Source: an uncultured Gammaproteobacteria bacterium (GTDB lineage: Bacteria > Patescibacteriota > Patescibacteriia > UBA11705 > JABHMO01). From it: a stretch of 62,684 bases of DNA. This document shows positions 11,839 to 50,678 of this stretch, in pieces. Position numbers and translations under genes: made by a program. Location of the stretch: assembly GCA_964486065.1 (NCBI GenBank), contig CAZAKN010000006.1, forward strand, positions 1 to 62,684. Reading direction: 5' to 3'. The notes under the pieces were generated by a model. That model had not been told where the DNA came from. It saw only the letters and a list, made by a program, of their open reading frames with translations, and ran no database searches. How positions within the stretch are numbered: the first letter of the stretch is position 1; each line of letters opens with the position of its first letter.

Positions 11839-12579
11839 TTATTTTGTTTTGCTTGTTTTTTCAACCGCTTTTTCGGTTGTTGATGTTTTTTGACGATCAA
11901 CTTTCGCTTCACTGATCGCTTCGGCCACGGTATTGGCGATAATCTTGATTGAATTGGAAGCATCATCATTGCCTGGAATGGGATAAGTTATTTTTTCCGG
12001 ATTAACATTGGTGTCGCAAATGGCAACGATCGGCAAACCGATTTTATTGGCCTCCAAAACCGCTGTTTTTTCTTCCTTTACATCTACAATAAATATCGCG
12101 TTCGGAACTTTGTCCAAAGAAGCTATTCCACCGACCAATTCTTCCAATCTTTCAATTTCACGAGTAATGGTCAGTCTTTCTTTTTTGGTATATTTATCCA
12201 ATTTTCCGGTTTCTTTTTGTTCTTTCAATTTATTATATTTTTTAACCACGCCCAAAACAGATTTGGAATTGGTCAAAGTTCCCCCCAACCAACGAGAAAC
12301 AATGTATGGCATCCCGCAAGCTTCCGCCGCTTTTTTGACGATCGGACGAGCTTGACTTTTGGTACCAAGGAATAAAACTTTTCCGCCTTCGGCAGTTACA
12401 CTTTTCACGAAATCCAAAGCTTGTTGCAATTTTTCCGCGGTTTTTTCCAAATCAATAATATGCACCCCTTGTTTTTCCGTAAAAATAAACGGCTTCATTT
12501 TAGGGTGCCATTTGGCTGTGCGATGTCCGAAATGAACACCGGCTTTCATTAAATCAGAAAGATTTACATTCTTTGACAT
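11839..12579 (-). CDS. rpsB: 30S ribosomal protein S2
   Basis: Conserved start MSKNVNLSDLMKAGVHFGH at 12579. The 32-codon upstream extension in the ORF track is not S2-like. Confidence 0.95.
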   Translation of the reverse strand: MSKNVNLSDLMKAGVHFGHRTAKWHPKMKPFIFTEKQGVHIIDLEKTAEKLQQALDFVKSVTAEGGKVLFLGTKSQARPIVKKAAEACGMPYIVSRWLGGTLTNSKSVLGVVKKYNKLKEQKETGKLDKYTKKERLTITREIERLEELVGGIASLDKVPNAIFIVDVKEEKTAVLEANKIGLPIVAICDTNVNPEKITYPIPGNDDASNSIKIIANTVAEAISEAKVDRQKTSTTEKAVEKTSKTK

Positions 12580-12751
12580 AAATTTACCTTTTTCAGCCGA
12601 ATTTACGGAATATATGAGAAAAATATTTCGTATTTTCGACTCCTCTACCTTTCCTTTCAAAGGTTCCCGCTTCACGGGTAGGCTCCTCTGAAATTTAGCT
12701 GAAATCAGCTCAGAAAAGTATGCGGTTTATTAGTTTAATTAATACGAAGAA

Positions 12752-12780
12752 ATGATATCACAAAGCCGAGTAATTTGCAA
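12752..12780 (-). promoter_or_regulatory. putative sigma70-type promoter of rpsB-tsf
   Basis: Minus strand TTGCAA-17 nt-TATCAT with a TG at the extended -10 position. Implies a roughly 165-nt leader. Confidence 0.5.
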
Positions 12781-12820
12781 TACTTAACTTATTTCAGCGA
12801 AATTTATCCCCAAATCACTC

Positions 12821-12849
12821 TTGCAAAGTTTTGTTTAACATGATATGTT
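12821..12849 (+). promoter_or_regulatory. putative promoter of the 12915 gene
   Basis: TTGCAA-17 nt-TATGTT. A 6-bp hairpin TTGCCG/CGGCAA lies in the leader. Confidence 0.35.
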
Positions 12850-12914
12850 ATTGTCGCTTGCCGAATCGGTCGGCAAACATTCGCACTTTTTAACTTTTTT
12901 TCGGAGGTTTCTAC

Positions 12915-13532
12915 ATGTTCAAAGTCATGAACACCGGCAACAAGATTAAGATCTCTCAAATCCGCCCCATCGTGCGTCGTGAAGCGTTCACCTTCGCGAA
13001 CAACAATTATCCGGACGCAATCAAGATTCTCACTCACATGATGAAAGAAACCACCTCGGATGTTCGCACCATCCCCTTAACCAAAGACGCGTTGCGCGAT
13101 TACCTGCCTCAAAACATTTCCTTTGACAATGTCAAACGGCAGATCATCGGCTTGACCGTTCTCTACGGCACGAAAGACTACAACCTTCGCGACAACGGCC
13201 CCTACTTCGGCATCAATGTCAAGGGCAATCTGGTCATCGCCAAAACCGAACAGACCTTGATCAAAGCGTTGACCGCGGGCATGACCGACGACGAAATCCT
13301 CACGAATATTGAAAAAGAACTCTCAGACGGCTACTATGAGCTGAAAAATTTCCTGACCACCGTCCAACCCGGCCAGATCGCCACTTTCAAAACCACCAAT
13401 CCGGCGGCTTTTGAACAGGTCAATACCATCCGCAGTCGTTTCGCTTATTGGCGAGCTCTGACCGATCGCATCGGCACGATCACCACCATGGTGGTCCCGG
13501 AAACGCTGACCAACGGCACGATCAACACCTAA
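12915..13532 (+). CDS. hypothetical protein (GC3-rich, SD-led orphan)
   Basis: 205 aa. GGAGG lies 7 nt upstream of the ATG. Has its own terminator. Codon third positions are visibly G/C-rich compared with neighbouring rpsB/tsf. Confidence 0.75.
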   Translation: MFKVMNTGNKIKISQIRPIVRREAFTFANNNYPDAIKILTHMMKETTSDVRTIPLTKDALRDYLPQNISFDNVKRQIIGLTVLYGTKDYNLRDNGPYFGINVKGNLVIAKTEQTLIKALTAGMTDDEILTNIEKELSDGYYELKNFLTTVQPGQIATFKTTNPAAFEQVNTIRSRFAYWRALTDRIGTITTMVVPETLTNGTINT

Positions 13533-13582
13533 AATTCCCACGCAGGGGATCCCACCGGTTTCTTTAAGGGGGACACCGGGAT

Positions 13583-13616
13583 ACGGCTCTATTCATCTGA
13601 ATAGAGCCGTTTTTTA
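13583..13616 (+). terminator. Rho-independent terminator
   Basis: 11-bp stem ACGGCTCTATT/AATAGAGCCGT followed by T6. Confidence 0.8.
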
Positions 13617-13663
13617 TTTACCCAAAAAAGTAAAACAAAAAAGAGCGATACTTCGCTCTCTTT

Positions 13664-13750
13664 TGGTGGGCCGGGGCGGATTCGAACCACCGAAGGCGCA
13701 AGGCCAGCAGATTTACAGTCTGCCCCATTTGACCGCTTTGGTACCGACCC
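13664..13750 (-). tRNA. tRNA-Tyr (GTA), long variable arm, encoded CCA
   Basis: Manual cloverleaf: acceptor GGGTCGG/CCGGCCC, anticodon loop CTGTAAA, T-arm GGTGG-TTCGAAT-CCGCC. Confidence 0.9.
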
Positions 13751-13888
13751 ATATTAAATCAATTGGCAACCGCTTAAATTTTTAAAAATGTTTCAAGAAA
13801 CATGAAAATCAATTAATGATTCGTTCTCCACGAATAATGTTCCATGTTTCAAAATACTATCACATTATAATCACTTAATCAAGCTAAG

Positions 13889-14476
13889 TTATCTACTTGA
13901 ATAATCTTTTTCCAGATTAAGTAATTCACTTTTGTTCAAGCCCATTTTTTTACCGGAAACCAAGCGTTGTCTGGTAATTTCATACAAACATATTCCGGCC
14001 GTAACCGAAACATTTAAACTCTGCACCAATCCACGCATGGGAATATAGATTTTACTGTCCGCCAACTTTAATGCCGAGCGAGACACTCCCCGATGTTCAT
14101 TACCTATCACCAAAGCTGTTTTACCTTTACTCCAATCTGTTTGATAAATACTCTCGGCTTGTTCGTCCAAAATCGTTACCGCGATTTTATATCCTTGCTT
14201 TTTTAAGGAGTTCAAACAAACACTGGTACTTTTATATTTTTCAAAATCCAGCCACTTATTGGCGGAAGCTGAGCTGACCTTGCCGACTTTACGAGGATTA
14301 AATTCCGCTCCGGATTCAAATATCAAACAAACTTTTTGCACGCCAAAATCTTCCGCGCTACGAAAAATCGCCGCCGCGTTGTGCGGATCATGAATTTTCT
14401 CCAAAACCAAAATCAAATCTTTCTGCCGGCCGGCCACGGCTTTTTTTATTTTTTGCATTCTTTGCTCGGTGGTCAT
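13889..14476 (-). CDS. SpoU/TrmH-family RNA 2'-O-methyltransferase
   Basis: 195 aa. SPOUT motifs (DPHNAAAIFRSAEDFG, LVIGNEHRGVS, IPMRGLVQSLNVSV). Confidence 0.85.
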   Translation of the reverse strand: MTTEQRMQKIKKAVAGRQKDLILVLEKIHDPHNAAAIFRSAEDFGVQKVCLIFESGAEFNPRKVGKVSSASANKWLDFEKYKSTSVCLNSLKKQGYKIAVTILDEQAESIYQTDWSKGKTALVIGNEHRGVSRSALKLADSKIYIPMRGLVQSLNVSVTAGICLYEITRQRLVSGKKMGLNKSELLNLEKDYSSR

Positions 14477-15071: not shown

Positions 15072-16067
15072 ATGAACATAATCAAACAATTGGAAAAAAA
15101 CGCCATTATCGGCAAGGGGTGTAACAATTATCCGACTTTTAAAAAATGGCAAAAATTCAAAGCGCAAAAATCATCTGAAAAATATTTGGTGGTCAATATT
15201 TCAGAAGGCACGCCCGCGGTTTTTAAAGACGGCTGGATTCTGCAGAATCGCTTGGATATTGCTTTGAAGGCCGTGGAATTTGCCATTGATTATTTTAAAA
15301 TAACCAAGGCTTTTATTTATCTTAATCCCGATTATTATAAACAATTTTCTCCGAAAATCCGTCGCGCCATCAAAAATTATCCTAAGATTGAATTAATCAA
15401 AGAACGCGCCGGCTATATCGGCGGTGAAGAAAGCGCTATCATGAATTTTTTGGAAGGCAAAATTGCCGAGCCGCGCCAAAAACCGCCGTTTCCTCATGAA
15501 CGCGGATTTAACGATCAGCCGACCTTGGTCAATAATTTGGAAACTTTTTACGATATCGGTAGAATTTTGCGCGATGAATATGACAATACCAGATTGGTTT
15601 GCTTTTCCGGCAAAAGAATTAAACCTCAAGTTTACGAACTGGATCAAAATCTGAGCTTTAAAAAAATGTTGGAATTAACCGGCAACTTGCCGAAATATGA
15701 TTTTTTCACGCAAATCGGTGGCTGGGCTTCGGGTTTGGTTTTGAACAAAAAACAATTGAATCGCACCTTTCAACAAACCGGTGGATTGGGTGCCATTGTC
15801 ATATATGATATTAAAGAAAATCCGCGCAAATTATTTTTGGACTGGATGAAGTTTTACAAAAGTGAAAGCTGTGGCAAATGCGTCCCTTGCCGAGAAGGCA
15901 CTTATAGACTGGTAGAATTATTATCCGAGCCAAAACCGGATTGGCGAAGAATAAAGGATTTGCTTTTCACTTTGGAAGAAACCGCTTTTTGCGGACTTGG
16001 CAAAGTAGTCCCGATCGGCATGCTTTCATACATGAAAAATATTATGGATTTCAGTAAAATCAAATAA
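15072..16067 (+). CDS. NuoF/HydB-like iron-sulfur protein (51-kDa family, degenerate flavin/NADH loop)
   Basis: Motifs AGYIGGEESAIMNFLEG, PRQKPPFPHERG, TLVNNLET, SCGKCVPCREG, FCGLG. The canonical GRGGAGFPTG loop reads GKGCNNYPTF here. Confidence 0.85.
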   Translation: MNIIKQLEKNAIIGKGCNNYPTFKKWQKFKAQKSSEKYLVVNISEGTPAVFKDGWILQNRLDIALKAVEFAIDYFKITKAFIYLNPDYYKQFSPKIRRAIKNYPKIELIKERAGYIGGEESAIMNFLEGKIAEPRQKPPFPHERGFNDQPTLVNNLETFYDIGRILRDEYDNTRLVCFSGKRIKPQVYELDQNLSFKKMLELTGNLPKYDFFTQIGGWASGLVLNKKQLNRTFQQTGGLGAIVIYDIKENPRKLFLDWMKFYKSESCGKCVPCREGTYRLVELLSEPKPDWRRIKDLLFTLEETAFCGLGKVVPIGMLSYMKNIMDFSKIK

Positions 16068-16070
16068 TTT

Positions 16071-17774
16071 ATGAATATTAAAATCAACAATCAGAACGTC
16101 AAAGCGCAAGCCGGACAAACAATTTTGGAAGCTTTACCAAAAGATATTTTCGTTCCCACGCTTTGTCATCACCCCGATCTTTCGGTACGAGCGAACTGTC
16201 GCGTCTGTGTGGTGGAATTAAAGGATGGTCGCTTGGTTACCGCCTGTTCCACTCCCGTCAAACTCAACATGGAAATATTTACCGATACGCCGAAAGTAAA
16301 AAAAGCCAGACGCATGAATTTGGAATTAATTTTTTCCGAACACGCGGAAAAATGTAGCACTTGTTTTTATAATAATAAATGCAAACTGCAAGATTACGCC
16401 AAGCAATACCAAGCCAAAATTACCGGTTTCAAAGACAGGAAAAACAATCGAAAAATTTTTCAATTCGGCGAAGCTGTACAATTTGATCAAACCAAATGCA
16501 TTGATTGTGGCAATTGTTTGGAAATGTGCGAAAAACAAACTATAAATTTTTATGATAAAATCGGCAAAGGAGCTGATCGCGAATATCGCCCGACCAAAGA
16601 CATTAATCGCGATTGCACCACCTGCGGGCAATGTATCGTCCACTGTCCAGTCGGTGCGATTCAAGAAGTTTCGCATTTGGAACGCGTGCAAAAAGCGCTG
16701 GATGATCCGAAAAAAATCGTCATCGCTCAAACCGCTCCGTCCATCCGCGTTTCAATCGGTGAAGAATTCGGCATGAATCCGGGTGAAATCGCCACGGGAA
16801 AGATGGTGGCGGGTTTGAAAAAATTGGGATTTGATTATGTTTTTGACACCAATCTCGGCGCGGATATCACCACCTTTGAAGAAGCCGGCGAATATTTTGA
16901 AGGCTTCAAACGCCGCAAAATGCTTTTCACTTCATGTTGTAGCGCTTGGTTTAAATTTGTCAGATTTTATTACCCTGAATTCATTCCCAATATTTCCACC
17001 GTTCATTCTCCGCAAACATGTTTGGGCAAAACCGTAAAAACCTATTTCGCGGAAAAACAGAGCATCAACCCGCGTGATATCGTGATGGTTTCCGTTATGC
17101 CTTGCGTGGCAAAAAAATTTGAAATCACTCAACCGAATACGAAAATAAACGGTATGTATGCCGTGGATCATGTTTTAACTACCAGGGAATTCGCGCAACT
17201 CATGCGACTGAACAAAGTTAATTTCAATTATTTAAAAGATGAAGATTTTGACCACCCCCTCGGCTCATCCAGTGGTGCGGCCGCGATTTACGGAGCAACC
17301 GGTGGTGTAATGGAATCCGCTCTGCGCACTGCAGTGGAATATTACATGGGAACAAAATTAAGAAAACCTGAATTCAAACAAGTCCGAGGCATGGAGCGAG
17401 TGCGAAAAGCGAATATAAAAGTAAAAGGTGAAACTATCCGCGTGGCCGTGGCCAGTGGATTGGACAGCGCTCGTCGCGTTCTGGAAGAAATCAAGCAAGG
17501 ACGCGAAAAGTTGGACTTTTTTGAAGTCATGGCCTGTCCCGGCGGTTGTATCGGTGGTGGCGGACAACCTCTTCCCACCAATAGCTATGTAAGAAACGCA
17601 CGCATTAAAGGACTTTATGAAATTGACAATAATTCCACCGTTCGCAAAGCGCACGAAAATCCGGATTTACTGAAACTGTATTCGGATTACGCCAACTCCA
17701 AGAAAAAAAGACATCATCTATTCCATACCCATCATGGTCGTCAGAAAAGATCGCCCATCAAAACGGATAAATAA
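16071..17774 (+). CDS. hydA: [FeFe]-hydrogenase catalytic subunit (group A-like)
   Basis: N-terminal 2Fe-2S and 4Fe-4S ferredoxin domains. H-cluster motifs FTSCCSAW, MPCVAKKFE, EVMACPGGCIGGGGQP. Confidence 0.9.
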   Translation: MNIKINNQNVKAQAGQTILEALPKDIFVPTLCHHPDLSVRANCRVCVVELKDGRLVTACSTPVKLNMEIFTDTPKVKKARRMNLELIFSEHAEKCSTCFYNNKCKLQDYAKQYQAKITGFKDRKNNRKIFQFGEAVQFDQTKCIDCGNCLEMCEKQTINFYDKIGKGADREYRPTKDINRDCTTCGQCIVHCPVGAIQEVSHLERVQKALDDPKKIVIAQTAPSIRVSIGEEFGMNPGEIATGKMVAGLKKLGFDYVFDTNLGADITTFEEAGEYFEGFKRRKMLFTSCCSAWFKFVRFYYPEFIPNISTVHSPQTCLGKTVKTYFAEKQSINPRDIVMVSVMPCVAKKFEITQPNTKINGMYAVDHVLTTREFAQLMRLNKVNFNYLKDEDFDHPLGSSSGAAAIYGATGGVMESALRTAVEYYMGTKLRKPEFKQVRGMERVRKANIKVKGETIRVAVASGLDSARRVLEEIKQGREKLDFFEVMACPGGCIGGGGQPLPTNSYVRNARIKGLYEIDNNSTVRKAHENPDLLKLYSDYANSKKKRHHLFHTHHGRQKRSPIKTDK

Positions 17775-17888: not shown

Positions 17889-17975
17889 TGGTGCCGTGGA
17901 GAGGACTTGAACCTCCACGAGATTGCTCTCACTAGCACCTGAAGCTAGCGCGTCTACCAATTCCGCCACCACGGC
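17889..17975 (-). tRNA. tRNA-Leu (CAG), encoded CCA
   Basis: Acceptor GCCGTGG/CCACGGC, anticodon stem CTAGC/GCTAG with loop TTCAGGT, long variable arm. Confidence 0.9.
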
Positions 17976-17980
17976 TTATT

Positions 17981-18424
17981 TTAACTTTTATACAATCTTT
18001 GATTTTTATAATTTTCAATTATTGATCCGGTCGGTTCAAAAATATTTTCCGGCAATTCATTCAAATCAAACCATTGCCATGCTTTACATTTATCCGGTTC
18101 TTTTAACTGTGGCTCGCCTTGGATCCGGCTCACCTTCACGCCAATCGTAACATAATGCTTGTCATCACTGGCAATGTAGCGCAAATCATCAGATATGGAA
18201 ATTATTTCCACCTCACCGACTCGCATACCGGTTTCTTCCTCGGTTTCCCGGATCGCGGCTTGAAATAGTTTTTCACCGGAATCAAGATGTCCGCCGGGAA
18301 AAGACCAATCACCGGCTCCATGGGATCCCTTTCGCAACCCGAGCAAAACTTGTCCTTGCTCATTTTGTATCATCACCCCCACTCCGATTCTTGGATATTT
18401 TTTGTCAATTATTTTTTTGTCCAT
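17981..18424 (-). CDS. NUDIX hydrolase
   Basis: Nudix box GGHLDSGEKLFQAAIRETEEETG. The ATG at 18424 is chosen because the longer ORF (to 18547) runs into tRNA-Pro. Confidence 0.85.
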   Translation of the reverse strand: MDKKIIDKKYPRIGVGVMIQNEQGQVLLGLRKGSHGAGDWSFPGGHLDSGEKLFQAAIRETEEETGMRVGEVEIISISDDLRYIASDDKHYVTIGVKVSRIQGEPQLKEPDKCKAWQWFDLNELPENIFEPTGSIIENYKNQRLYKS

Positions 18425-18502
18425 ATCATTTATAAAATTAACCTTTTTGTAATTATTCTGCTTTAAATAACAAAGTTGAAAAAAACGACGAACTAAGTCA
18501 AA

Positions 18503-18578
18503 TGGTCGGGCTGGCGGGACTTGAACCCGCGACCTCACGCACCCCATGCGCGCGCGCTACCAACTGCGCCACAGCCCG
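18503..18578 (-). tRNA. tRNA-Pro (GGG), encoded CCA
   Basis: Acceptor CGGGCTG/CAGCCCG, anticodon loop ATGGGGT, T-arm GCGGG-TTCAAGT-CCCGC. Confidence 0.9.
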
Positions 18579-18598
18579 TTTTTAAAATAAGTCTTTAT

Positions 18599-19060
18599 TT
18601 AATTCAATTTTTCGCTCCAAAATATATTTTGAACTTTTCTTTGACCATCAAAGGTCCAATGATGCTGTTTGGGAACTTTATCAAAACAACTATTGCTAAT
18701 CGCCTGTTCTTCCCCTATGTAAAAACCGATATGTTTATGCTTTTCTCCATTAAAATCAATTTCCCGCCAAACAATAATGGAGCCGACTTCGGGTTCTTCC
18801 GTCTTTTCCCAACCGGATTCAATCAAATCATTTTCCGTTCCGACAACAGTACCGTGAATTCTTTCGGTTAAACCGAACAAGGTGGTGATTGACGAAACAA
18901 AAAAAGCGCAAGACAATTCTCCGGCTCTCATAATATCCCGTTTTTCATCAGCAACTTGGGCATAAAAATTTTGAAAAATATTTGTACCCAAACTGTTTTT
19001 GATAACCGCAATATAAGTATCTTTCAATAAAGGTTTCACTTGTTCATTTATATTATTCAT
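18599..19060 (-). CDS. NlpC/P60-like (papain-fold Cys/His) hypothetical protein
   Basis: 153 aa. The pattern GELSCAFFVS ... GSIIVW ... KHIGFYIG resembles the NlpC/P60 catalytic Cys/His arrangement. No signal peptide seen. Confidence 0.55.
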   Translation of the reverse strand: MNNINEQVKPLLKDTYIAVIKNSLGTNIFQNFYAQVADEKRDIMRAGELSCAFFVSSITTLFGLTERIHGTVVGTENDLIESGWEKTEEPEVGSIIVWREIDFNGEKHKHIGFYIGEEQAISNSCFDKVPKQHHWTFDGQRKVQNIFWSEKLN

Positions 19061-19100
19061 AAAATCAATCCACTAATCCATATTTGCTCCCGCAAATTTT

Positions 19101-19178
19101 TGGTCGGGGTGAGAGGACTTGAACCTCCGACCTCGTCGACCCGAACGACGCGCGCTAGCCAACTGCGCCACACCCCGA
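19101..19178 (-). tRNA. tRNA-Pro (CGG), encoded CCA
   Basis: Anticodon stem CGTCG/CGACG with loop TTCGGGT, T-arm GGAGG-TTCAAGT-CCTCT. Confidence 0.9.
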
Positions 19179-21998: not shown

Positions 21999-22256
21999 TT
22001 AACAAAATTTAAAAGAGACGCTCTTCATGGAGTCGTCTCTTTTTTTATGTTTGCTTTTGCGGGAATAAGCTTTTTTGCTTTTTTCCACGCGCGTGGCCGG
22101 AATTGTGCCAAAGGCTTCTCGGCTTTCCCGCTTGATCTGTCGCGCCAGGCGAGAACTTTTTTCTTCCGAGTTTTCGCCTCGTTGCGCTTTACGAAATTCC
22201 GCTTGATGCAGTTTGCGCTTACGGCGACTACTTGCTTTTTTACCTTTTTTCGCCAT
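21999..22256 (-). CDS. small highly basic K/R/S-rich protein
   Basis: 85 aa. GGAGGA SD 4 nt upstream of the ATG. GC-richer than surroundings. Divergent from the J-domain operon. Confidence 0.6.
   Translation of the reverse strand: MAKKGKKASSRRKRKLHQAEFRKAQRGENSEEKSSRLARQIKRESREAFGTIPATRVEKSKKAYSRKSKHKKRDDSMKSVSFKFC
22014..22046 (+). terminator. Rho-independent terminator after uvrB
   Basis: Stem AGAGACGCTC/GAG-CGTCTCT followed by T6. Lies inside the 3' end of the convergent small basic ORF. Confidence 0.7.
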
Positions 22257-22397
22257 GATTTCCTCCTTTTTTTTAAGTTTTGGCGATTTTAAGAAACTTT
22301 TTCATCATAACACTATTTTCATTTTTTGTCAAATGTAATATAAAATACAATAAAATTGTTAACAAATCTGAATATTAAGCTAATATACCAAAAAACC

Positions 22398-22426
22398 TTG
22401 ACAAAATTAAATATTTATTATAAAAA
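22398..22426 (+). promoter_or_regulatory. putative promoter of the J-domain operon
   Basis: TTGACA at 22398-22403 followed by an AT-rich -10 region (TATAAA/TAAAAA 15-17 nt downstream). Confidence 0.5.
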
Positions 22427-22462
22427 GTACATGGTTCATTACAACAATCCAAGGAGAATACA

Positions 22463-22753
22463 ATGAATCTTAACCCCTATGCCGTCCTGGGAGTGGATGA
22501 AAAGGCGGGGGCTGATGAGATAAAAAAGGCTTTTCGCCAAAAAACCCTAACCTCTCACCCCGACCTATTCCAAGGAGAAACTCCGGAAACATTGGAAGAA
22601 AAACGCTTGGAATTTGAACAACTTCAAAAAGCGTATGAACTCCTGATGAATCCGGAAAAAAGAAAGATTTACGACTCTACCGGCGGTTTAATCGTCACTA
22701 AAGGAAATATGGCTTTCGTCAGAGATTTTTGGCGAAAAAAACTCAATCTCTAA
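22463..22753 (+). CDS. J-domain-only protein (DnaJ-like)
   Basis: 96 aa. NPYAVLGV...EIKKAFRQKTLTSHPD (HPD motif) ... KAYELLMNPEKRKIYD. AAGGAG SD. Confidence 0.85.
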   Translation: MNLNPYAVLGVDEKAGADEIKKAFRQKTLTSHPDLFQGETPETLEEKRLEFEQLQKAYELLMNPEKRKIYDSTGGLIVTKGNMAFVRDFWRKKLNL

Positions 22754-22766
22754 AAAAGGAGCAAAA

Positions 22767-23750
22767 ATGCCAAAAGCTTTATTAAGACACAGTGTAATGG
22801 AAGAACTAAGCGGAATCCGGAGTTTGTCCGGAAATCCCACACCGGAGGAGGAAGTGGCTGAAGGAAGAAAGCGGGCTTTGGAATATTTACAAAGACCCGA
22901 ATTGTACTCTGAAGCGATTTTCTCGCCGGACCATGCCTCGGCCATGCTTTTAGCCTCTGGACCGGAAAGTTGGGACGGAGAAGCCAAAGACAAAGTCACC
23001 AAGGATTTTCTGGAACAGCTCGGACCCGAGCTGGCGGAAGAAGTGGAAAGTTTGGTTCAAGATGTTATGCCCTTGGACAAACAACGCCACCTGTTCCTAT
23101 CCATGAAAACGACGACTCCGTCAAAAAACATGGTGATCTTCTCTCCGCAAGATGTGGCGAAAATTCAAGAACTTCGTGACTGCGTCAAGAAAAATGGCGA
23201 CAGCGAAAAAGTCTTCGCTCTTGTTCCGTTTAAGCAACAAGCGCTGGTGCTGGCTGCCTCTTACGAACAGGCTAAGGAATCCGCCGGCTTGCAAGGAATG
23301 AAAGATCAGCAATTACGGCGTTACGAAGCCATCTTCTTGGAGAAAAAGGAGAAAGAAAGACGCGAAGTAATCGGCATTATGATCAACAACGGCGATGGCG
23401 CCATGATCATGGAACTGTCCGCCGCTTCCGCGGGTGATGATTCACCTCTCATGGACTCGTTGACCGCCGACATGCTGGCAAAAATGTTCGACATGGATAA
23501 AGACATCCATGATTCGGATGAACGCTTGATCAACATGATGTACACGCTGGTGTGCATCAACGGCCTCAAGTCCAACTCCATCACTTTTTTACAAAGTAAA
23601 AAGGGGCAGGCTTGGTTGAAAAGGTTGATCAAGGTTAATAGCGATAGAGCTAAAGATCTTGACGACCTGAGCCATGAAGAAATCATTGCGATCGTCCGAG
23701 ATTCCATGGCGGAAGACATCAGCATCCCGTGGCCGGGATTGCGAGACTAA
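22767..23750 (+). CDS. hypothetical protein (no recognisable domain)
   Basis: 327 aa. AAGGAG SD 5 nt upstream. Starts 13 nt after the J-domain gene. Confidence 0.8.
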   Translation: MPKALLRHSVMEELSGIRSLSGNPTPEEEVAEGRKRALEYLQRPELYSEAIFSPDHASAMLLASGPESWDGEAKDKVTKDFLEQLGPELAEEVESLVQDVMPLDKQRHLFLSMKTTTPSKNMVIFSPQDVAKIQELRDCVKKNGDSEKVFALVPFKQQALVLAASYEQAKESAGLQGMKDQQLRRYEAIFLEKKEKERREVIGIMINNGDGAMIMELSAASAGDDSPLMDSLTADMLAKMFDMDKDIHDSDERLINMMYTLVCINGLKSNSITFLQSKKGQAWLKRLIKVNSDRAKDLDDLSHEEIIAIVRDSMAEDISIPWPGLRD

Positions 23751-23860
23751 ACAAAAAACACAGGGAGTGGCTCGCCACTCCCTTTCTTTTCAAACTTCAC
23801 TTGAGCATTTGATCAATTTTCAAGCGAGTTTTGAAACAAAACAAGGACAAGGAGAAGACA

Positions 23861-25066
23861 ATGAACGGATCATTAACAACTGAAACCAGAAATGCCGACT
23901 GGCAGACTACCGCCATCTATTTGAAAAAGTTCAGCTTATTGGATTCCGCCAAAGCTGAAAAACTTCTGGACGAACTGACGGAAATCACCTATGCGTGGCT
24001 GGAAAAATACAGTATCAACCCACATGATTTGGCTCAAGTAAAACAGACCTGTGATATTATCTTTAACCTGCTTGACGCCAAGATCAAAAGGAGTAATTTG
24101 ACGAACCAAGAAGCGTCCTCATTATTGCTCCAACCGAACGCCACGAGGGAAATTTACGCCAATGCTTTACGAGATATTGAAACGCTTTGGAATAAGTTTC
24201 TTATTCGTGAAAATAAAATTCACCGCACTTACAAAGATGGTGAATTCACGGTTACCATGAAGCAATTGGAAGATAATGAAGATATAGCGCTTAGCTTGGG
24301 GATGGAACCTGACGAAGAATCCGCGAACGATAAAAACTTGCTGATAAAAACCGCTGTGGTTATCAGAGCTTTTGATCTTCTGCAAATGGTCGCGCAGGAA
24401 CATGAAGAATTGATAGCATTTCTCAATAACTACCGCCAAATGCTTTTATCGGAAAAGGATATCTACCTTTTCCTGGCGGATATGGAAAACTTTCAATTGT
24501 TCAACAATTACCTTGACCAAGCGCAAAAAATGGAACAAATTTCTTTGCGTTACCTGCCTTGGGAAAATTTGGTCAAAGAATTGAAGCTTAAACCGCACGG
24601 CTTTTATCAAAAAGATTTACGCATAAGCAATATTGATAAAATCCTTGAGACAAAGGCTTACTTGTTCCGCACCTTGAACTTTTCCACCATGGTTAACACT
24701 TTGATCATTTCCAACAATTTCTGGCAAAAACCGCCTTCTTGCACGATCAAGTGGCGTTCGTTCAAAACGGCGCTGAACAAAAAAGGTTTCCCCTCGGCTG
24801 ATGAATATTTTGCTATGGCTGAAAAAACCAAACAAACATATTTGTCTCGCTTGAAGGAAAAACCATCGGAAAAAGAAATGCCGATTTTTCATGACTTGTG
24901 GGATTTGGCGGTTGAAAACTTTCTTGAACAGATTAACAACCGCAACACGCATATTATGAGCAAAAAATTGGTCGCCATTGTCTGGGCTCAACTTCTGCAT
25001 ATCACCACTCCGAACGGTCTTTACCGTCATTACAATGAATTGCAGTTTGACAACATGGAGCTATAA
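23861..25066 (+). CDS. hypothetical protein, predicted all-helical (no recognisable domain)
   Basis: The ATG at 23861 is preceded by AAGGAG; the ORF track starts upstream at 23831. 401 aa. Confidence 0.8.
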   Translation: MNGSLTTETRNADWQTTAIYLKKFSLLDSAKAEKLLDELTEITYAWLEKYSINPHDLAQVKQTCDIIFNLLDAKIKRSNLTNQEASSLLLQPNATREIYANALRDIETLWNKFLIRENKIHRTYKDGEFTVTMKQLEDNEDIALSLGMEPDEESANDKNLLIKTAVVIRAFDLLQMVAQEHEELIAFLNNYRQMLLSEKDIYLFLADMENFQLFNNYLDQAQKMEQISLRYLPWENLVKELKLKPHGFYQKDLRISNIDKILETKAYLFRTLNFSTMVNTLIISNNFWQKPPSCTIKWRSFKTALNKKGFPSADEYFAMAEKTKQTYLSRLKEKPSEKEMPIFHDLWDLAVENFLEQINNRNTHIMSKKLVAIVWAQLLHITTPNGLYRHYNELQFDNMEL

Positions 25067-25073
25067 AACAAAA

Positions 25074-25096
25074 CCCCGTCAATGACGGGGTTTTTT
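25074..25096. terminator. bidirectional Rho-independent terminator
   Basis: Stem CCCCGTC/GACGGGG flanked by an A-run and a T-run. Serves the convergent 23861 and 25115 genes. Confidence 0.85.
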
Positions 25097-25114
25097 AATA
25101 TTATAATTACTTGA

Positions 25115-25345
25115 TCAATCTTCCAAATACTCAAATCGTGGAATCTTTTTGCCATCAACTTCAACTTGTTCGGTAAATTCATCAGCCGGCCTGGTCCATA
25201 AAACATGTTCGCCGAATTCGGGATGTTCATACTGCGCTTCGTAAACCACCATATCTCGTAATGTTTCACTATGCTTGGCCACGGCGATCACTTCGTAAAT
25301 CTTGCCTTTATAATGTTTATATCTACCCGGTTTTATTTCCATCAT
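25115..25345 (-). CDS. DUF1653 domain protein
   Basis: GRYKHYKGKIYEVIAVAKHSET...VVY pattern typical of DUF1653. The ATG lies 1 nt after the HD gene stop. Confidence 0.8.
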   Translation of the reverse strand: MMEIKPGRYKHYKGKIYEVIAVAKHSETLRDMVVYEAQYEHPEFGEHVLWTRPADEFTEQVEVDGKKIPRFEYLED

Positions 25346-25346
25346 A

Positions 25347-25904
25347 TTAATAATAATTGAAAAGCGAAGCGTATTCATCAAAAATTTCACCTTTTTCCTC
25401 ACCGAATTTTTCGTGAAATTTTTTCTTAATACTACGCACGCTACGATCTTTATGTTTATGAATATCTTTTTTTGAATAGAACTTATCCGCGAAACAGATT
25501 ATTTTTTCTTCCAAAGATACCGGCATCATTTCCCTTTTCGGTAATGGTAGTTTTTGTCCGATAATATCTTTTAAAGTCAAACCAACTCCCGTATGTCTTT
25601 CGCAAACAAGTGCGTGTTTCGGCAAGCCTTCTTTTTCCAAAAGCTGTCTGCCCAAATAACCGTGAGCCAAATAAGGTTTTTCACCATTGCAACCGATCTT
25701 CGGACAATCCGTCATAAATATTCCGATATCATGCAGCATCGCCGCTTCTTCAACGAATTGAAAATCAGGATTTAATTCTTTTACTCGCGCGGCGATTTCC
25801 AGGGCTTTCTCCGCTACGCAACGCGAATGCAAAATCAAAATTTCATAAGCTCGCGAGCCAGGTTCATAATAATTTTCTATGATTCGCATTGGTTCAATAG
25901 CCAT
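25347..25904 (-). CDS. HD-domain phosphohydrolase
   Basis: 185 aa. H...HD motif (AAMLHDIG) and downstream His/Asp residues. Confidence 0.85.
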   Translation of the reverse strand: MAIEPMRIIENYYEPGSRAYEILILHSRCVAEKALEIAARVKELNPDFQFVEEAAMLHDIGIFMTDCPKIGCNGEKPYLAHGYLGRQLLEKEGLPKHALVCERHTGVGLTLKDIIGQKLPLPKREMMPVSLEEKIICFADKFYSKKDIHKHKDRSVRSIKKKFHEKFGEEKGEIFDEYASLFNYY

Positions 25905-25907
25905 AAA

Positions 25908-26060
25908 TCAATCCGCGTATTTGGCAATGACACCGACCAGCAAACCGGCCAGAAAACCGATAACCGAAGTAATCAAAATTCCGCCGAAAACAGTTCCGAC
26001 AATAATTCCCACCGCCAATCCAACAATTGTAAAAATTATAAATAAATGTTTGCCTTGCAT
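25908..26060 (-). CDS. small glycine-zipper membrane protein (50 aa)
   Basis: Translated by hand as MQGKHLFIIFTIVGLAVGIIVGTVFGGILITSVIGFLAGLLVGVIAKYAD. The stop lies 4 nt before the HD gene ATG. TATAAT sits 8 nt upstream of the ATG. Confidence 0.55.
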   Translation of the reverse strand: MQGKHLFIIFTIVGLAVGIIVGTVFGGILITSVIGFLAGLLVGVIAKYAD

Positions 26061-26154
26061 ACTTTTACATTATAGCAAATCTCGCTCACTTGGGTCTATA
26101 ATTTTTATTTCTTTTTAATTAACCGTAAAACCGCCACTCAACCGAATCTCTCAA

Positions 26155-26183
26155 TTGACTGTGTATAACCGGACTGCTAAAAT
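26155..26183 (+). promoter_or_regulatory. putative promoter of uvrA
   Basis: TTGACT-17 nt-TAAAAT. Confidence 0.6.
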
Positions 26184-26250
26184 GGATACACCACCCCCTA
26201 ACAACCCCCGGGAGGTGGATTTTGAAGTTTATAAGCAATAATATTTCATT

Positions 26251-47450: not shown

Positions 47451-50400
47451 TTAATCATCCAGAGCCTTGCGCAAGAGAGAAATCAGTTCTTCTCCCTTAA
47501 AAGGCTTGGATATAAAATGTGCATCTTCGGGAATTATACCATGGTCCGATACAACTTCTTCATTGTAACCGGACATAAACACCACTTTTATTGCCGGATT
47601 TTTCTCTTTGACTTTTTCCGCCAATTCTTTGCCATTCAAGCCGGGCATTTTCACATCCGTTAACAGCAAATGGAATTGCGACAAATCCTTTTCCGACATG
47701 CGTGCAATTCGCAAAGGCTCGCTGAAAGCCTCAACTGCAAAACCCGAATGTTCCAAAAGCTTTTGAGCTACATTTAAAACACTGATTTCATCTTCCGCCA
47801 TAAGAATTCTTTCTTTACCGTCAAGATGCTTTTGCTCAGCTTCGCGCATTTGCCGAGCCTGATCGGAAACGCTTTCCCGTCTGGGCAAATATATTTTGAA
47901 CTTGGCGCCGTTTTTACCGGAACTGATCCTGAAATAACCTTCCATTTGACTGATAATGCCAAAAGCGGTGGACAGTCCCAGACCCGTGCCTTTACCTTGA
48001 GCCTTGGTGGTGAAGAAAGGTTCAAAAACCCTTTTCAAATGTTCTTCATCAATGCCGGTTCCGTTGTCGGCAACTTCCAGCACCACATACTCTCCGGGTA
48101 AAATCTTACCTCCACCGGCAGCCGGCAAAGCTATTTGTACCACCTTATTGACCAAGTTAATTTCTATTTTACCGTCGTTAACCTTGCCTTCAAGCTGTTC
48201 TTCACTTTGTCTGCTTTCAATGGCGTCTCTGGCATTGATAACCAGATTCAGCAAGACTTGCTCCACCTGCGTGGGGTCAACTCGGACTCGCCAAAGATCA
48301 TTCACGGCTTGCCAAGACAATTGCAAATCTTCACCAATTGTTCTAATCATGATTTTGACATTGTTCTCCACCAGTCCGGACAAATCGGTATCCAACATTC
48401 TGATCGGCTGTTTGCGACTGAACGCCAATAATTGCTTGTTCAATTCAGCCGCTCTCCTGGTAGCTTTTTCTATCTCCGCCAAACACTCTCGCGCATCATC
48501 GCTCAAATCGGAAGAAAACAGTCTCATCACTTCCACATTGGCGGTGATTACCGTCAAATTGTTGTTGGAATCATGAGCCATACCTCCGGCCAGACGCCCC
48601 ACCGCTTCCATTTTTTGCGCTTGGTTCAATTGTTCCCGCAAAATAGCTTTTTCTTCCGCGAAAATCGTTTTCTCGGAAACATCTCTTAAAGTGGCTTGGA
48701 TAATCTTTTTATCACCATGCGATTTTTCAAACAAATCCATGTTGATTTTCAAAGTTACCTGTCCACCGTCTTTGCGCTTCATGAAAAATTCGTAACCGGC
48801 GCCCGGAGATCGCAACAAGCTCTCTTTGATCTTGTAATCAAGTTCAAAAAAGGTCAGCAAATTACGCCCCAAAATTTCACCGGTTTTATAACCCGTAAAC
48901 TTACCGACTTGCGGATTGCATTCAATAATCAAACCATTGTCATCACAAAGCAAAACTCCCACGCTGAGTTGTTCAATCATCTTACGATGTCGTTTTTCAC
49001 TTCTCCTCAACGCGTTAACCGCTTTTTGACGACCGATAACATTCACTGTCAAATCGCTGATACGCTTCATTAGTTCATAATCTTTTTCCGTCCAGACTCT
49101 GCTTTTCCGAACGCAATCCAGTCCCAGAAAACCGATTGTAACACCTTCGCGAATCATCGGCACGGCCAACAAAGATTGGATGCTTTGCTCTTGTAAGATT
49201 TTTTTCTCACCACGCGCTTCTTCGGGCAAATCATCCATTTCATCCAAGATGATCGGCTTAAATCTTTCCAGTTGATCCCACCACCACGGGATAATGTCCA
49301 CCGACAGCATTTGCAAATTATTGATCTGCGGTGCTATTCCGGCACGACAATACTCGTGAGTGTTACTAACGAAAAAACTTCCGTCTTGCTCTCTAGCATC
49401 AAACACATAAGCGCGATCAGCGCTAAAATAATCCGCCAATGTTTTCAGCATATTATCAACGCCTTCTCCAACGCGTTTAATCGGCAAATTGTTAAATTCC
49501 GTGGAAAATTCGGAAAACAGCGCGTTCTCCGCGGCCGCTTGCCGGTCAAGCGTTACATCCACGAACTTAACATAGCGTTTTTCTTTGCCATCCGGCCAAG
49601 CGATCATATGTGATTCCGCGCGATACCATTTATTCGTGGCACCTTTTCCTTGCAATTGCATGGGAGATACTTTTTTGAACGAAGAATTCTCACAGCCCGG
49701 ACAAGCCAAACCGAATTCTCCCAATATCTCACAGCACTTACCGCCCACAGCCGTATTTCCGAAAATTTGCAAAAACGCGGGATTGGCCTGCATAATCACA
49801 TGTTCTTCCGGATCCGCAATGTAACTCGGCATATCAGTGGCTTCATGCATGGCGCGCAACTTGGCCAAACTTTCCGCCAGCTCTTGCTCGGCTTTCTTAC
49901 GATTGGAAATGTCTCTGGAAACTCCCACCAAACCTATCGGCTTGCCGGTTTTATCCCGCAAAAACCTGATGGTGATTTCCACCCAGATTCTCTCTCCCGA
50001 CTTGGTTTTCTCATAAATTTCCACGCTTTGTGAACGATCCCAATCTCTTTGTCCACTCATCTCCGCGGCCAATTCATGATTAAAAAGCGACAAAAGTCTC
50101 TCCAAGTCCGGCTGATCCATAAAATCCAGTAAAGTCAATTGCAAAGCTTCTTCCGGCGTCCAACCAAAAACCTGTTCAACCGACGGACTGAAAAATTTAT
50201 AGTTCAATTTCAAATCCGTTTCCCAAATCACATCTTTCACGCTCTTCAACAACAGTTCATATCTTTTTTCGGACTCCAGTTTCTCGGCCTGCCAACGCCG
50301 ATTTTCCATCACCTTTTGATACACATTTTCCACCGCTTCCAAAAACGGCGACACATGAAAAGGCTTGATGATGTAATCCAACGCGCCCAAACGCATGGCT

Positions 50401-50678
50401 TGTTGCGCGCTTTCCAGATTGGCTTCACCGGTTACCATTATAACGCCAACATCCAAATGATTCTTCTGGATCTTGGCCAACAATTCCAACCCGCTGACTC
50501 CTCGCAAATAGATATCGCCAACAACCACATCAATTTGTTCGGTTCGCAATACTTCCAAAGCATCGGCCGCGTTATCGGCAAGAAAACACTCATAGCCTTT
50601 TCTTTTACTGAAAATGTCTCGAGCCAAATCCAACATGACAGTTTCATCATCAACGAACAATACGGCTCGTTTTTCCAT
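47451..50678 (-). CDS. hybrid sensor histidine kinase/response regulator (REC-PAS-GAF-PAS-HisKA-HATPase-REC)
   Basis: 1075 aa. N- and C-terminal receiver domains, H-box MAHDSNNNL, G-boxes DNGTGI and GKGTGLGLS. GAGGAG SD. Confidence 0.93.
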   Translation of the reverse strand: MEKRAVLFVDDETVMLDLARDIFSKRKGYECFLADNAADALEVLRTEQIDVVVGDIYLRGVSGLELLAKIQKNHLDVGVIMVTGEANLESAQQAMRLGALDYIIKPFHVSPFLEAVENVYQKVMENRRWQAEKLESEKRYELLLKSVKDVIWETDLKLNYKFFSPSVEQVFGWTPEEALQLTLLDFMDQPDLERLLSLFNHELAAEMSGQRDWDRSQSVEIYEKTKSGERIWVEITIRFLRDKTGKPIGLVGVSRDISNRKKAEQELAESLAKLRAMHEATDMPSYIADPEEHVIMQANPAFLQIFGNTAVGGKCCEILGEFGLACPGCENSSFKKVSPMQLQGKGATNKWYRAESHMIAWPDGKEKRYVKFVDVTLDRQAAAENALFSEFSTEFNNLPIKRVGEGVDNMLKTLADYFSADRAYVFDAREQDGSFFVSNTHEYCRAGIAPQINNLQMLSVDIIPWWWDQLERFKPIILDEMDDLPEEARGEKKILQEQSIQSLLAVPMIREGVTIGFLGLDCVRKSRVWTEKDYELMKRISDLTVNVIGRQKAVNALRRSEKRHRKMIEQLSVGVLLCDDNGLIIECNPQVGKFTGYKTGEILGRNLLTFFELDYKIKESLLRSPGAGYEFFMKRKDGGQVTLKINMDLFEKSHGDKKIIQATLRDVSEKTIFAEEKAILREQLNQAQKMEAVGRLAGGMAHDSNNNLTVITANVEVMRLFSSDLSDDARECLAEIEKATRRAAELNKQLLAFSRKQPIRMLDTDLSGLVENNVKIMIRTIGEDLQLSWQAVNDLWRVRVDPTQVEQVLLNLVINARDAIESRQSEEQLEGKVNDGKIEINLVNKVVQIALPAAGGGKILPGEYVVLEVADNGTGIDEEHLKRVFEPFFTTKAQGKGTGLGLSTAFGIISQMEGYFRISSGKNGAKFKIYLPRRESVSDQARQMREAEQKHLDGKERILMAEDEISVLNVAQKLLEHSGFAVEAFSEPLRIARMSEKDLSQFHLLLTDVKMPGLNGKELAEKVKEKNPAIKVVFMSGYNEEVVSDHGIIPEDAHFISKPFKGEELISLLRKALDD

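Follow-up and report, generated by a model that had tools for sequence, protein, structure and literature searches.

A J-domain gene module of uncultivated bacteria that shares the architecture of the Atc DnaK-targeting network

INTRODUCTION

What does a short J-domain protein do when its gene is followed by two genes for proteins in which no domain can be recognized? The question is raised by a metagenomic contig of 62,684 nucleotides (nt) (CAZAKN010000006.1, assembly GCA_964486065.1; "the window" below means this whole stretch), which comes from a microbial mat and recurs with identical sequence in sister samples. Between its uvrB and uvrA genes lies a block in which a minus-strand gene for a basic protein of 85 amino acids (aa) is divergent from three plus-strand genes, coding for a 96-aa J-domain protein (J), a 327-aa protein (ORF2) and a 401-aa protein (ORF3). 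The original prediction, made from the letters of the sequence, saw in J and the two proteins behind it a dedicated unit, and knew of no described system of this composition. Here, we report that the plus-strand genes are, as judged by sequence comparison, one copy of a rare, conserved and unannotated module of four parts, J, A, B and C, in which A and B are fused in ORF2 and C is ORF3. We are inclined to view this module as distantly related, in a non-canonical form, to the Atc network for DnaK targeting, or else as a system that at least works in the same way.

Apart from DnaJ, CbpA, DjlA and HscB, little of the bacterial J-domain repertoire has been explored, and Atc is one of the few cases in which a mini J-protein couples DnaK to a specific machine, RNA polymerase. 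In Shewanella oneidensis, atcJ opens the atcJABC operon; its product AtcJ (94 aa) consists of a J-domain, through the HPD motif of which DnaK is recruited, and of a tail of 21 aa by which it binds AtcC. AtcC in turn binds AtcB, AtcB binds RNA polymerase, and the recruitment of DnaK by AtcJ and AtcC limits the AtcB–RNA polymerase complex; AtcA has an acidic tail and is without a known role (PMC6715715; bioRxiv 10.64898/2026.09.07.749886). Overproduced AtcB is toxic, and the toxicity is relieved by AtcC, AtcJ and DnaK (bioRxiv 10.64898/2026.09.07.749886).

RESULTS AND DISCUSSION

The plus-strand genes form a conserved module

J (22463–22753), ORF2 (22767–23750) and ORF3 (23861–25066) all lie on the plus strand, the first two 13 nt apart and the last two separated by a spacer of 110 nt (23751–23860). 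ORF3 codes for a helical protein of 401 aa from its ATG, or of 411 aa from an upstream TTG. The coordinates and lengths of all four open reading frames (ORFs) of the block, the basic gene included, and the 13-nt distance are as first predicted, and a GGAG-type Shine–Dalgarno sequence precedes each of the four. Strains about 95% identical to the window, from freshwater sediment and other metagenomes, retain the entire block. The only indels in them are an in-frame deletion of 6 nt in ORF2, a one-base indel in the spacer between J and ORF2, and minor changes upstream of the 85-aa gene; those that break a frame are confined to spacers. The substitutions listed fall at third codon positions in 23 of 40 cases in ORF2 (p = 0.0014) and in 19 of 40 in ORF3 (p = 0.044), and are synonymous in 50% and 35% of cases, respectively, against a random expectation of about 20%. 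Because of the placement of the indels and of this third-position bias, the module genes are real and are under purifying selection in the related strains.

A word-indexed search of 5.8 billion proteins with ORF2 and ORF3 returned the queries themselves only, and the same type of search with J returned the query and one unrelated 135-aa DnaJ-domain protein (P0004). HMMER, run exhaustively over 1.84 billion cluster representatives, gave eight relatives of ORF2 (E 3e-11 to 3e-4; 23%–32% identity over residues ~131–296). In every contig of these relatives a gene for a DnaJ-domain protein of 95–105 aa lies immediately upstream on the same strand, and wherever the contig continues a gene for a protein of 470–582 aa lies downstream (413 aa or more where the contig cuts the gene). 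A pattern scan of metagenomes of the Joint Genome Institute added three loci, with a third gene of 467–472 aa. The same co-oriented arrangement of J, A and B (fused or separate) and C is thus present in at least nine other metagenomic loci (the P0005 contig, L083, L086, L087, L088 and L122–L125; L084 and L085 are partial), with proteins 16%–32% identical to those of the window. The trio suspected of being a dedicated unit is therefore co-conserved across metagenomes, which supports that view; the lack of co-conservation by which it was to be refuted is not seen.

Within the family, J has 95–105 aa, A 143–213 aa, B 208–261 aa and C 467–582 aa. The four-gene order is complete in L123 and L125 and can be followed up to B in L122 and L124; in these loci B has 208–259 aa and C 470–551 aa. 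A and B are separate genes in most loci (L122–L125, L088 and L085) and are fused in three lineages, represented by the window, by L086/L087/P0005 and by L083; the occurrence of both states suggests that A and B act together. To assign the window genes, profiles were built without the window sequences and run against its 208 ORFs of at least 60 aa. The A profile matched residues 12–103 of ORF2 (E = 1.4e-5; next-best window ORF 0.78), the B profile residues 145–321 of the same protein (E = 6e-27), the C profile ORF3 (E = 5.9e-11; next-best window ORF 0.09) and the J profile the window J gene (E = 1e-22); these three ORFs are the sole profile matches among the 208, unrelated ORFs reaching E ≥ 0.09 at best. 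It is because of these matches, together with the co-conservation, that we assign the genes to the module. Accordingly, ORF2 can be divided into an A-like N-terminal domain (residues 1–118; 22767–23120, plus strand) and a B-like C-terminal domain (residues 119–327; 23121–23750, plus strand), the latter being the best-conserved part of the module, with invariant residues identified in the family alignment (A1). ORF3 is colinear with the other C proteins, with which it shares the motif R[YF]LPW and the invariant residues S228, P233, W234, T276, W298 and W375. No other C protein is as short or as divergent (401 aa, against 467–582 aa elsewhere).

As predicted, the two large proteins have no recognizable domain. 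Scans of A, B and C with Pfam, NCBIfam, PDB-profile, PADLOC and PHROG yielded either nothing or single matches not common to the relatives, so that neither a credible family nor a well-characterized family unrelated to chaperones emerged for them, and the J-A-B-C family as such is without a Pfam, NCBIfam or PDB entry. DUF4464, ZorD and AbiEi were dropped as family identities because the matches had no support in relatives; the ZorD match (17.7 bits) was confined to the window ORF2, and the AbiEi match (14.9 bits; E 0.0037) to ORF3. The family was found in metagenome assemblies and one metagenome-assembled genome (MAG) only, and not in genera from which Atc is known; GTDB species representatives and viral contigs gave no match when scanned with patterns of the B family.

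Similarity of the J tail and of C to AtcJ and AtcC

J matches the Pfam DnaJ domain PF00226 over residues 4–71 (66.9 bits against a cut-off of 27.8; E 1.7e-18) and carries its HPD motif at residues 32–34, which confirms the J-domain-only protein with an intact motif seen at the outset. The J-domain is the sole Pfam match in the 96 aa, and models of full-length DnaJ match only at profile positions ~3–80. Without a G/F-rich region, a zinc finger or a DnaJ C-terminal domain, J is a class C (type III) J-domain protein. What is left is a C-terminal tail of 25 aa (...GGLIVTKGNMAFVRDFWRKKLNL), and it is in this tail, as well as in C, that similarity to Atc is found.

The NCBIfam model NF050028 ("cold adaptation protein ActJ", that is, AtcJ) aligns residues 4–90 of J to positions 3–89 of its 93 profile positions. 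For the family as a whole, J and AtcJ were matched by hhalign at 99.4%, and the alignment continues through the tail; the tails alone match the tail of AtcJ at identical positions (P = 0.0034; reversed control 0.096). W90 of the window J is aligned to the Trp of AtcJ that is essential for AtcC binding. In addition, by direct reading, 22 residues separate HPD from the "AY" of helix III both in the window J and in AtcJ, against 17 in the other J-proteins of the family.

For the comparison of the remaining parts, over 50 real atc operons (Shewanella, Moritella, Parashewanella, Aeromonas, Rheinheimera and others) were gathered with a published-primer pattern and an AtcB-alignment scan; the resulting profiles are gammaproteobacterial only. 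The C family matches AtcC by hhalign with a probability of 78% (P = 1.8e-5), columns 4–95 aligning with columns 3–93, colinear from residue 3–4 onwards, whereas 12 cross-family controls gave P ≥ 0.066 and 17 reversed controls P ≥ 0.12. In AtcC, the matching ~90 residues are the part for which structural conservation within the family has been reported. The similarities of J and C are weak and specific, and they concern AtcJ and AtcC, the pair of Atc proteins that bind each other.

Moreover, the module and the atc operon are built alike. In both, a leading J-protein of ~95 aa, made of a J-domain and a tail of ~21–25 aa, comes before A, B and C on the same strand, acidic helical proteins that increase in size in this order and have no known domains; J, A and B are tightly coupled or overlapping, and the length of C is variable. 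The sizes of the Atc proteins (AtcJ 94, AtcA 162–177, AtcB ~252 and AtcC ~298 aa or longer) mirror those of J, A, B and C in their order. Thus, AtcJABC has the same composition and order, in addition to a distant similarity in J and C, and the statement of the original prediction that no system of this composition was known has to be withdrawn.

Arguments against a relationship with Atc

Several observations weigh against the reading that we favor. J scores 46 bits with NF050028, below the 150-bit equivalog cut-off; a true AtcJ scores 185 bits. The Pro of the PX7W motif is absent, its position being occupied by Asn82, and the other J tails of the family have F, Y or C at the position of W90. 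The match between C and AtcC is limited to ~90 residues at the 78% probability given above. No similarity was detected by hhalign between A and AtcA (P = 0.17) or between B and AtcB (P = 0.16), in comparisons with Atc profiles that are shallow, comprising gammaproteobacterial operons with at least 69% AtcB identity. The NCBIfam models for AtcA (NF047888), AtcB (NF047889) and AtcC (NF047890), which score true Atc proteins at 283–512 bits (true AtcA 283), have no match to ORF2 or ORF3 at E ≤ 0.1, and the eight relatives that HMMER found for ORF2 are not matched by the NCBIfam Atc models at E ≤ 1 either. Single-sequence AlphaFold2 models of ORF2 and ORF3 (pLDDT, the predicted local distance difference test score, 48 and 37) are too poor for a fold comparison; a Foldseek search of the PDB with the ORF2 model gave nothing below E = 0.15, with template-modeling scores of at most 0.25, and was disregarded. 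Finally, most loci have a hairpin-bearing B–C spacer of 71–194 nt, whereas atc operons have ~10 nt at this position.

Further differences are that A and B are fused in the window and that C has 401–582 aa, against the 298 aa of AtcC. Whereas Atc is found in S. oneidensis and in other, mainly beta- and gammaproteobacterial, organisms, the module was found outside the genera known to carry it. The two Asp residues of AtcB that bind RNA polymerase have no counterpart to be pointed to, because ORF2 gives no usable alignment to AtcB. An alignment of B and AtcB made by eye around "...LTP..I.." was dropped, as hhalign did not support it. In sum, all four NCBIfam equivalog cut-offs fail, and by these models the window is not a formal member of Atc, although it shares the Atc architecture. 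It is worth noting, in respect to the missing Pro, that authentic Atc systems with a degenerate or absent PX7W motif have been reported (bioRxiv 10.64898/2026.09.07.749886).

Several of these observations also count in favor of a dedicated J-protein/partner system of independent origin, Atc-like by analogy only, which would deliver the A-B protein together with C, or a structure bound by them, to DnaK in a process related neither to RNA polymerase nor to cold, much as HscB delivers IscU. The co-conservation and tight coupling of the genes hold whatever the homology, A and B are without similarity to AtcA and AtcB, the cut-offs fail, C is much longer than AtcC, and the B–C hairpin is lacking in atc operons. 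Against it stand two independent weak similarities, in the N-terminus of C (P = 1.8e-5) and in the J tail (P = 0.003), which fall on the two Atc proteins that bind each other, as well as a four-gene order and a pattern of sizes identical to those of Atc; we consider an independent origin to be rather unlikely, if a serious competitor. The HscB–IscU–HscA system itself differs from the module in that HscB binds its client through a structured C-terminal domain and works with an Hsp70 of its own, HscA; no similarity of J to HscB was seen beyond the J-domain, and J is not listed by the NCBIfam HscB models.

Transcription signals and a positionally conserved hairpin

The trio was predicted to be an operon of three genes driven by a TTGACA promoter. 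A TTGACA hexamer is indeed present upstream of J (22398–22403), but has only a weak −10, without a canonical hexamer at 16–18 nt; the pair that the promoter scan lists in this region is TTAACA-16-TAATAT (22359–22386). Both belong to a stretch of promoter-like sequences (22359–22426, plus strand) recognized by matches to the consensus. Likewise, the three genes are co-oriented and J and ORF2 are closely spaced, but a terminator-like hairpin splits ORF2 from ORF3. It lies on the plus strand at 23762–23791 (hairpin 23762–23783), reads AGGGAGTGG-CTCG-CCACTCCCT, then TTCTTTTC, and has a 9-bp stem with 6 GC pairs in the terminator scan; the fold of the spacer has z = −3.5, and the stem is identical in the ~95%-identical strains. 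Because of this hairpin and the following TTCTTTTC, ORF3 may be attenuated or separately transcribed. The end of the block agrees with what was expected: an intrinsic-terminator-like hairpin with an 11-bp stem (25070–25094) is found there by the terminator scan on both strands.

A hairpin in this position is a feature of the family. J, A and B are −14 to +16 nt apart, an estimated A–B gap of ~70 nt in L088 being the exception, and the B–C spacer measures 71–194 nt in eight of nine loci. Of the eight spacers that were folded, seven begin with a hairpin that is strong and GC-rich and mostly has a U-run behind it (z −3.5 to −8.1), that of L088 being weak. Spacers with a strong terminator-like hairpin are those of the window (23751–23860), L083 (1911–2044), L084 (1044–1181), L085 (1204–1353), L086 (9189–9335), L087 (720–869) and L123 (5099–5248). 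The hairpin sequences are unrelated among loci, so that it is the position that is conserved and not the sequence. We infer that the hairpin acts as a partial terminator, or else in RNA processing or stability, and so reduces C in relation to J, A and B. A second long hairpin is seen further downstream in the B–C spacers of L083, L084, L086/L087 and L123.

A proposed mechanism

If the module is related to Atc, or works like it, its parts could act as follows. The contacts between the proteins, a part for DnaK, the target and the role in physiology are each what this reading would lead one to expect. The 96-aa J-protein would bind DnaK and stimulate it through its HPD-containing J-domain, while its short C-terminal tail, with W90, would dock onto ORF3, the C protein. 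C in turn would hold the B domain of ORF2 by its ~90 conserved N-terminal residues. DnaK would thus be brought to the A-B protein, and would remodel it or release it from a cellular target, which in Atc is RNA polymerase. The tight translational coupling of J, A and B, and the hairpin or terminator in front of C, would probably set the ratio of the subunits.

We put forward, more tentatively, that the module represents a previously undescribed and widely scattered DnaK-targeting family of uncultivated bacteria, either an ancient sister of Atc, which would carry that system far past its known lineages, or an independent invention of the same logic, in which A works physically with B and in which a positionally conserved terminator or attenuator before C is a regulatory layer that atc operons lack. 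If so, the architecture of J tail, C and B would be an old and reusable design and not a curiosity of the Shewanella type. The natural fusion of A and B would, moreover, make the role of AtcA-like proteins testable, and the diverse sequences of the family would be of use in predicting structures and in locating the J tail/C and C/B interfaces.

Composition, setting and other possible roles

The block was also described as a GC-rich island in which all four genes exceed their flanks. When GC content was computed, this proved to hold for ORF2 only. The GC content of ORF2 is 0.485, against 0.400 for the window, 0.426 for uvrA and 0.411 for uvrB, and its GC content at third codon positions (GC3) is 0.567 (z about 2.4–2.5; rank 2 of 48 long ORFs); J (0.423) and ORF3 (0.403) are ordinary, and the basic gene has 0.453. 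The island was therefore rejected as evidence for horizontal transfer of the block as a whole, ORF2 alone being deviant. The strongest compositional outlier of the window lies elsewhere and is a 205-aa ORF (12915–13532, plus strand) without a Pfam match, whose GC3 reaches 0.709 against a window mean of 0.407 (sd 0.067).

The interval between uvrB and uvrA (21999–26250 in the window) is variable. In L003, the closest genome found (UvrB 71% and UvrA 73% identical), what lies in the corresponding interval (12035–14126), in place of the J module and of the DUF1653 and HD genes, is a 205-aa membrane ORF together with an RlmN-like gene, and the J module was absent from the best 80 uvrB loci in a synteny search via uvrB. 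The closest UvrB relatives (L003, L004 and L005) are from MAGs labelled "uncultured Gammaproteobacteria", the next ones, at 54%–62% identity, being from Patescibacteria and from relatives of Melainabacteria/Cyanobacteria; the placement is of relevance because Atc and ArfA are mainly beta- and gammaproteobacterial.

A variable interval, neighbors of the module that vary between loci and the raised GC and GC3 of ORF2 could also point to a horizontally acquired cargo of the toxin/antidote or defence type, in which the A-B protein would inhibit growth and would be restrained by C, J and DnaK; the toxicity of AtcB, and its relief by AtcC, AtcJ and DnaK, provides a precedent (bioRxiv 10.64898/2026.09.07.749886). 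On the other hand, no integrase, repeat or transposase was seen to flank the block in the ORF list and Pfam scan of the window, the GC content of J and ORF3 is ordinary, and no relatives occur in the viral contigs scanned. The ZorD and AbiEi matches are not common to relatives, A, B and C otherwise having no credible PADLOC or PHROG match, and the J-domain is the only part of the module that matches PHROG families. We therefore hold a cargo of this kind to be improbable.

It had further been suggested that the two large proteins might be effectors acting on the Hsp70 of a host, in an episymbiont. Some phages and pathogens do use J-domain-only proteins in this way, and Rki of the T4-like phage RB43 is, like J, a very short J-domain protein, which redirects DnaK to a single target (PMC3486835); Rki differs from J in being phage-encoded and in having no conserved partner genes, whereas no relatives of the module were found in the viral contigs scanned. 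The gene content of the window also speaks against the idea. A NuoF-like protein and the large subunit of an FeFe hydrogenase are encoded at 15072–17774, a hybrid sensor kinase of 1075 aa with PAS, GAF and two receiver domains at 47451–50678, and full uvrABC repair is present as well; such content argues against a reduced episymbiont. Moreover, the direct translations show no secretion signal, no phage or defence signal was found, and the contigs that carry the module span 40%–63% GC and have neighbor genes that differ between loci. Action on a host is, in our view, highly improbable, and the reading of the module as a relative or functional counterpart of Atc is the one that we retain.

The divergent 85-aa gene is a candidate ArfA-like factor

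The basic protein encoded on the minus strand (21999–22256) is rich in Lys, Arg and Ser (isoelectric point 11.1) and had been included in the same block as the trio. It is not a member of the system: the gene was not found beside the J-A-B-C module at any other module locus, and because it is not co-conserved with the trio we treat it as a separate unit. It has a strong divergent promoter of its own in the promoter scan, TTGACA-17-TATGAT with an upstream TG (22332→22304; 11 of 12 positions matching), and eight of its ten listed strain variants are synonymous.

In BLASTP, residues 40–75 of the protein match residues 10–50 of E. coli ArfA, with 18 of 41 positions identical (44%; E = 2e-5) and with the common motif QIK...EA...P..RVEK.KK..Y.RK.KH. 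The terminator of uvrB, expected from the original prediction and found as a hairpin with a T-run 3′ of uvrB (22011–22046), lies inside the reading frame of this gene, over codons 71–82, the stop being codon 86. On the minus strand a U-tract, UUUUAAAUUUU, lies between the hairpin and the stop. Transcripts ended at the hairpin would thus lack a stop codon, because both hairpin and U-tract precede codon 86. A terminator placed inside the reading frame before the stop, which gives non-stop transcripts, is the autoregulatory design of arfA and brfA. The protein therefore resembles ArfA of E. coli and BrfA of B. subtilis in being small and very basic and in having an in-frame terminator just before the stop, and resembles ArfA in the motif above. 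It differs from ArfA in having an extra basic N-terminus of ~30 residues and in failing the Pfam ArfA model PF03889 (cut-off 25.5 bits), which does not match it even at E ≤ 10 and scores E. coli ArfA at 89.5 bits. We propose, as a hypothesis, that the gene codes for an ArfA-like ribosome-rescue factor. In view of its divergence from Pfam ArfA, the gene would widen the range of known alternative ribosome-rescue factors if it is indeed ArfA-like, with non-stop transcripts as part of its design.

Neighboring genes

Just upstream of uvrB, a NUDIX gene, a weak CHAP/NlpC-P60-like ORF and a CYTH-domain gene alternate with three minus-strand tRNA genes (17892–17975, 18506–18578 and 19104–19177; region 17892–19177). 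Beyond the module, the longest DUF1653 ORF (25115–25402) overlaps the end of the HD-domain gene (25347–25904) by 56 nt, both being on the minus strand; the start chosen by the gene caller for DUF1653 is later (91 aa), and the overlap is then still ~44 nt.

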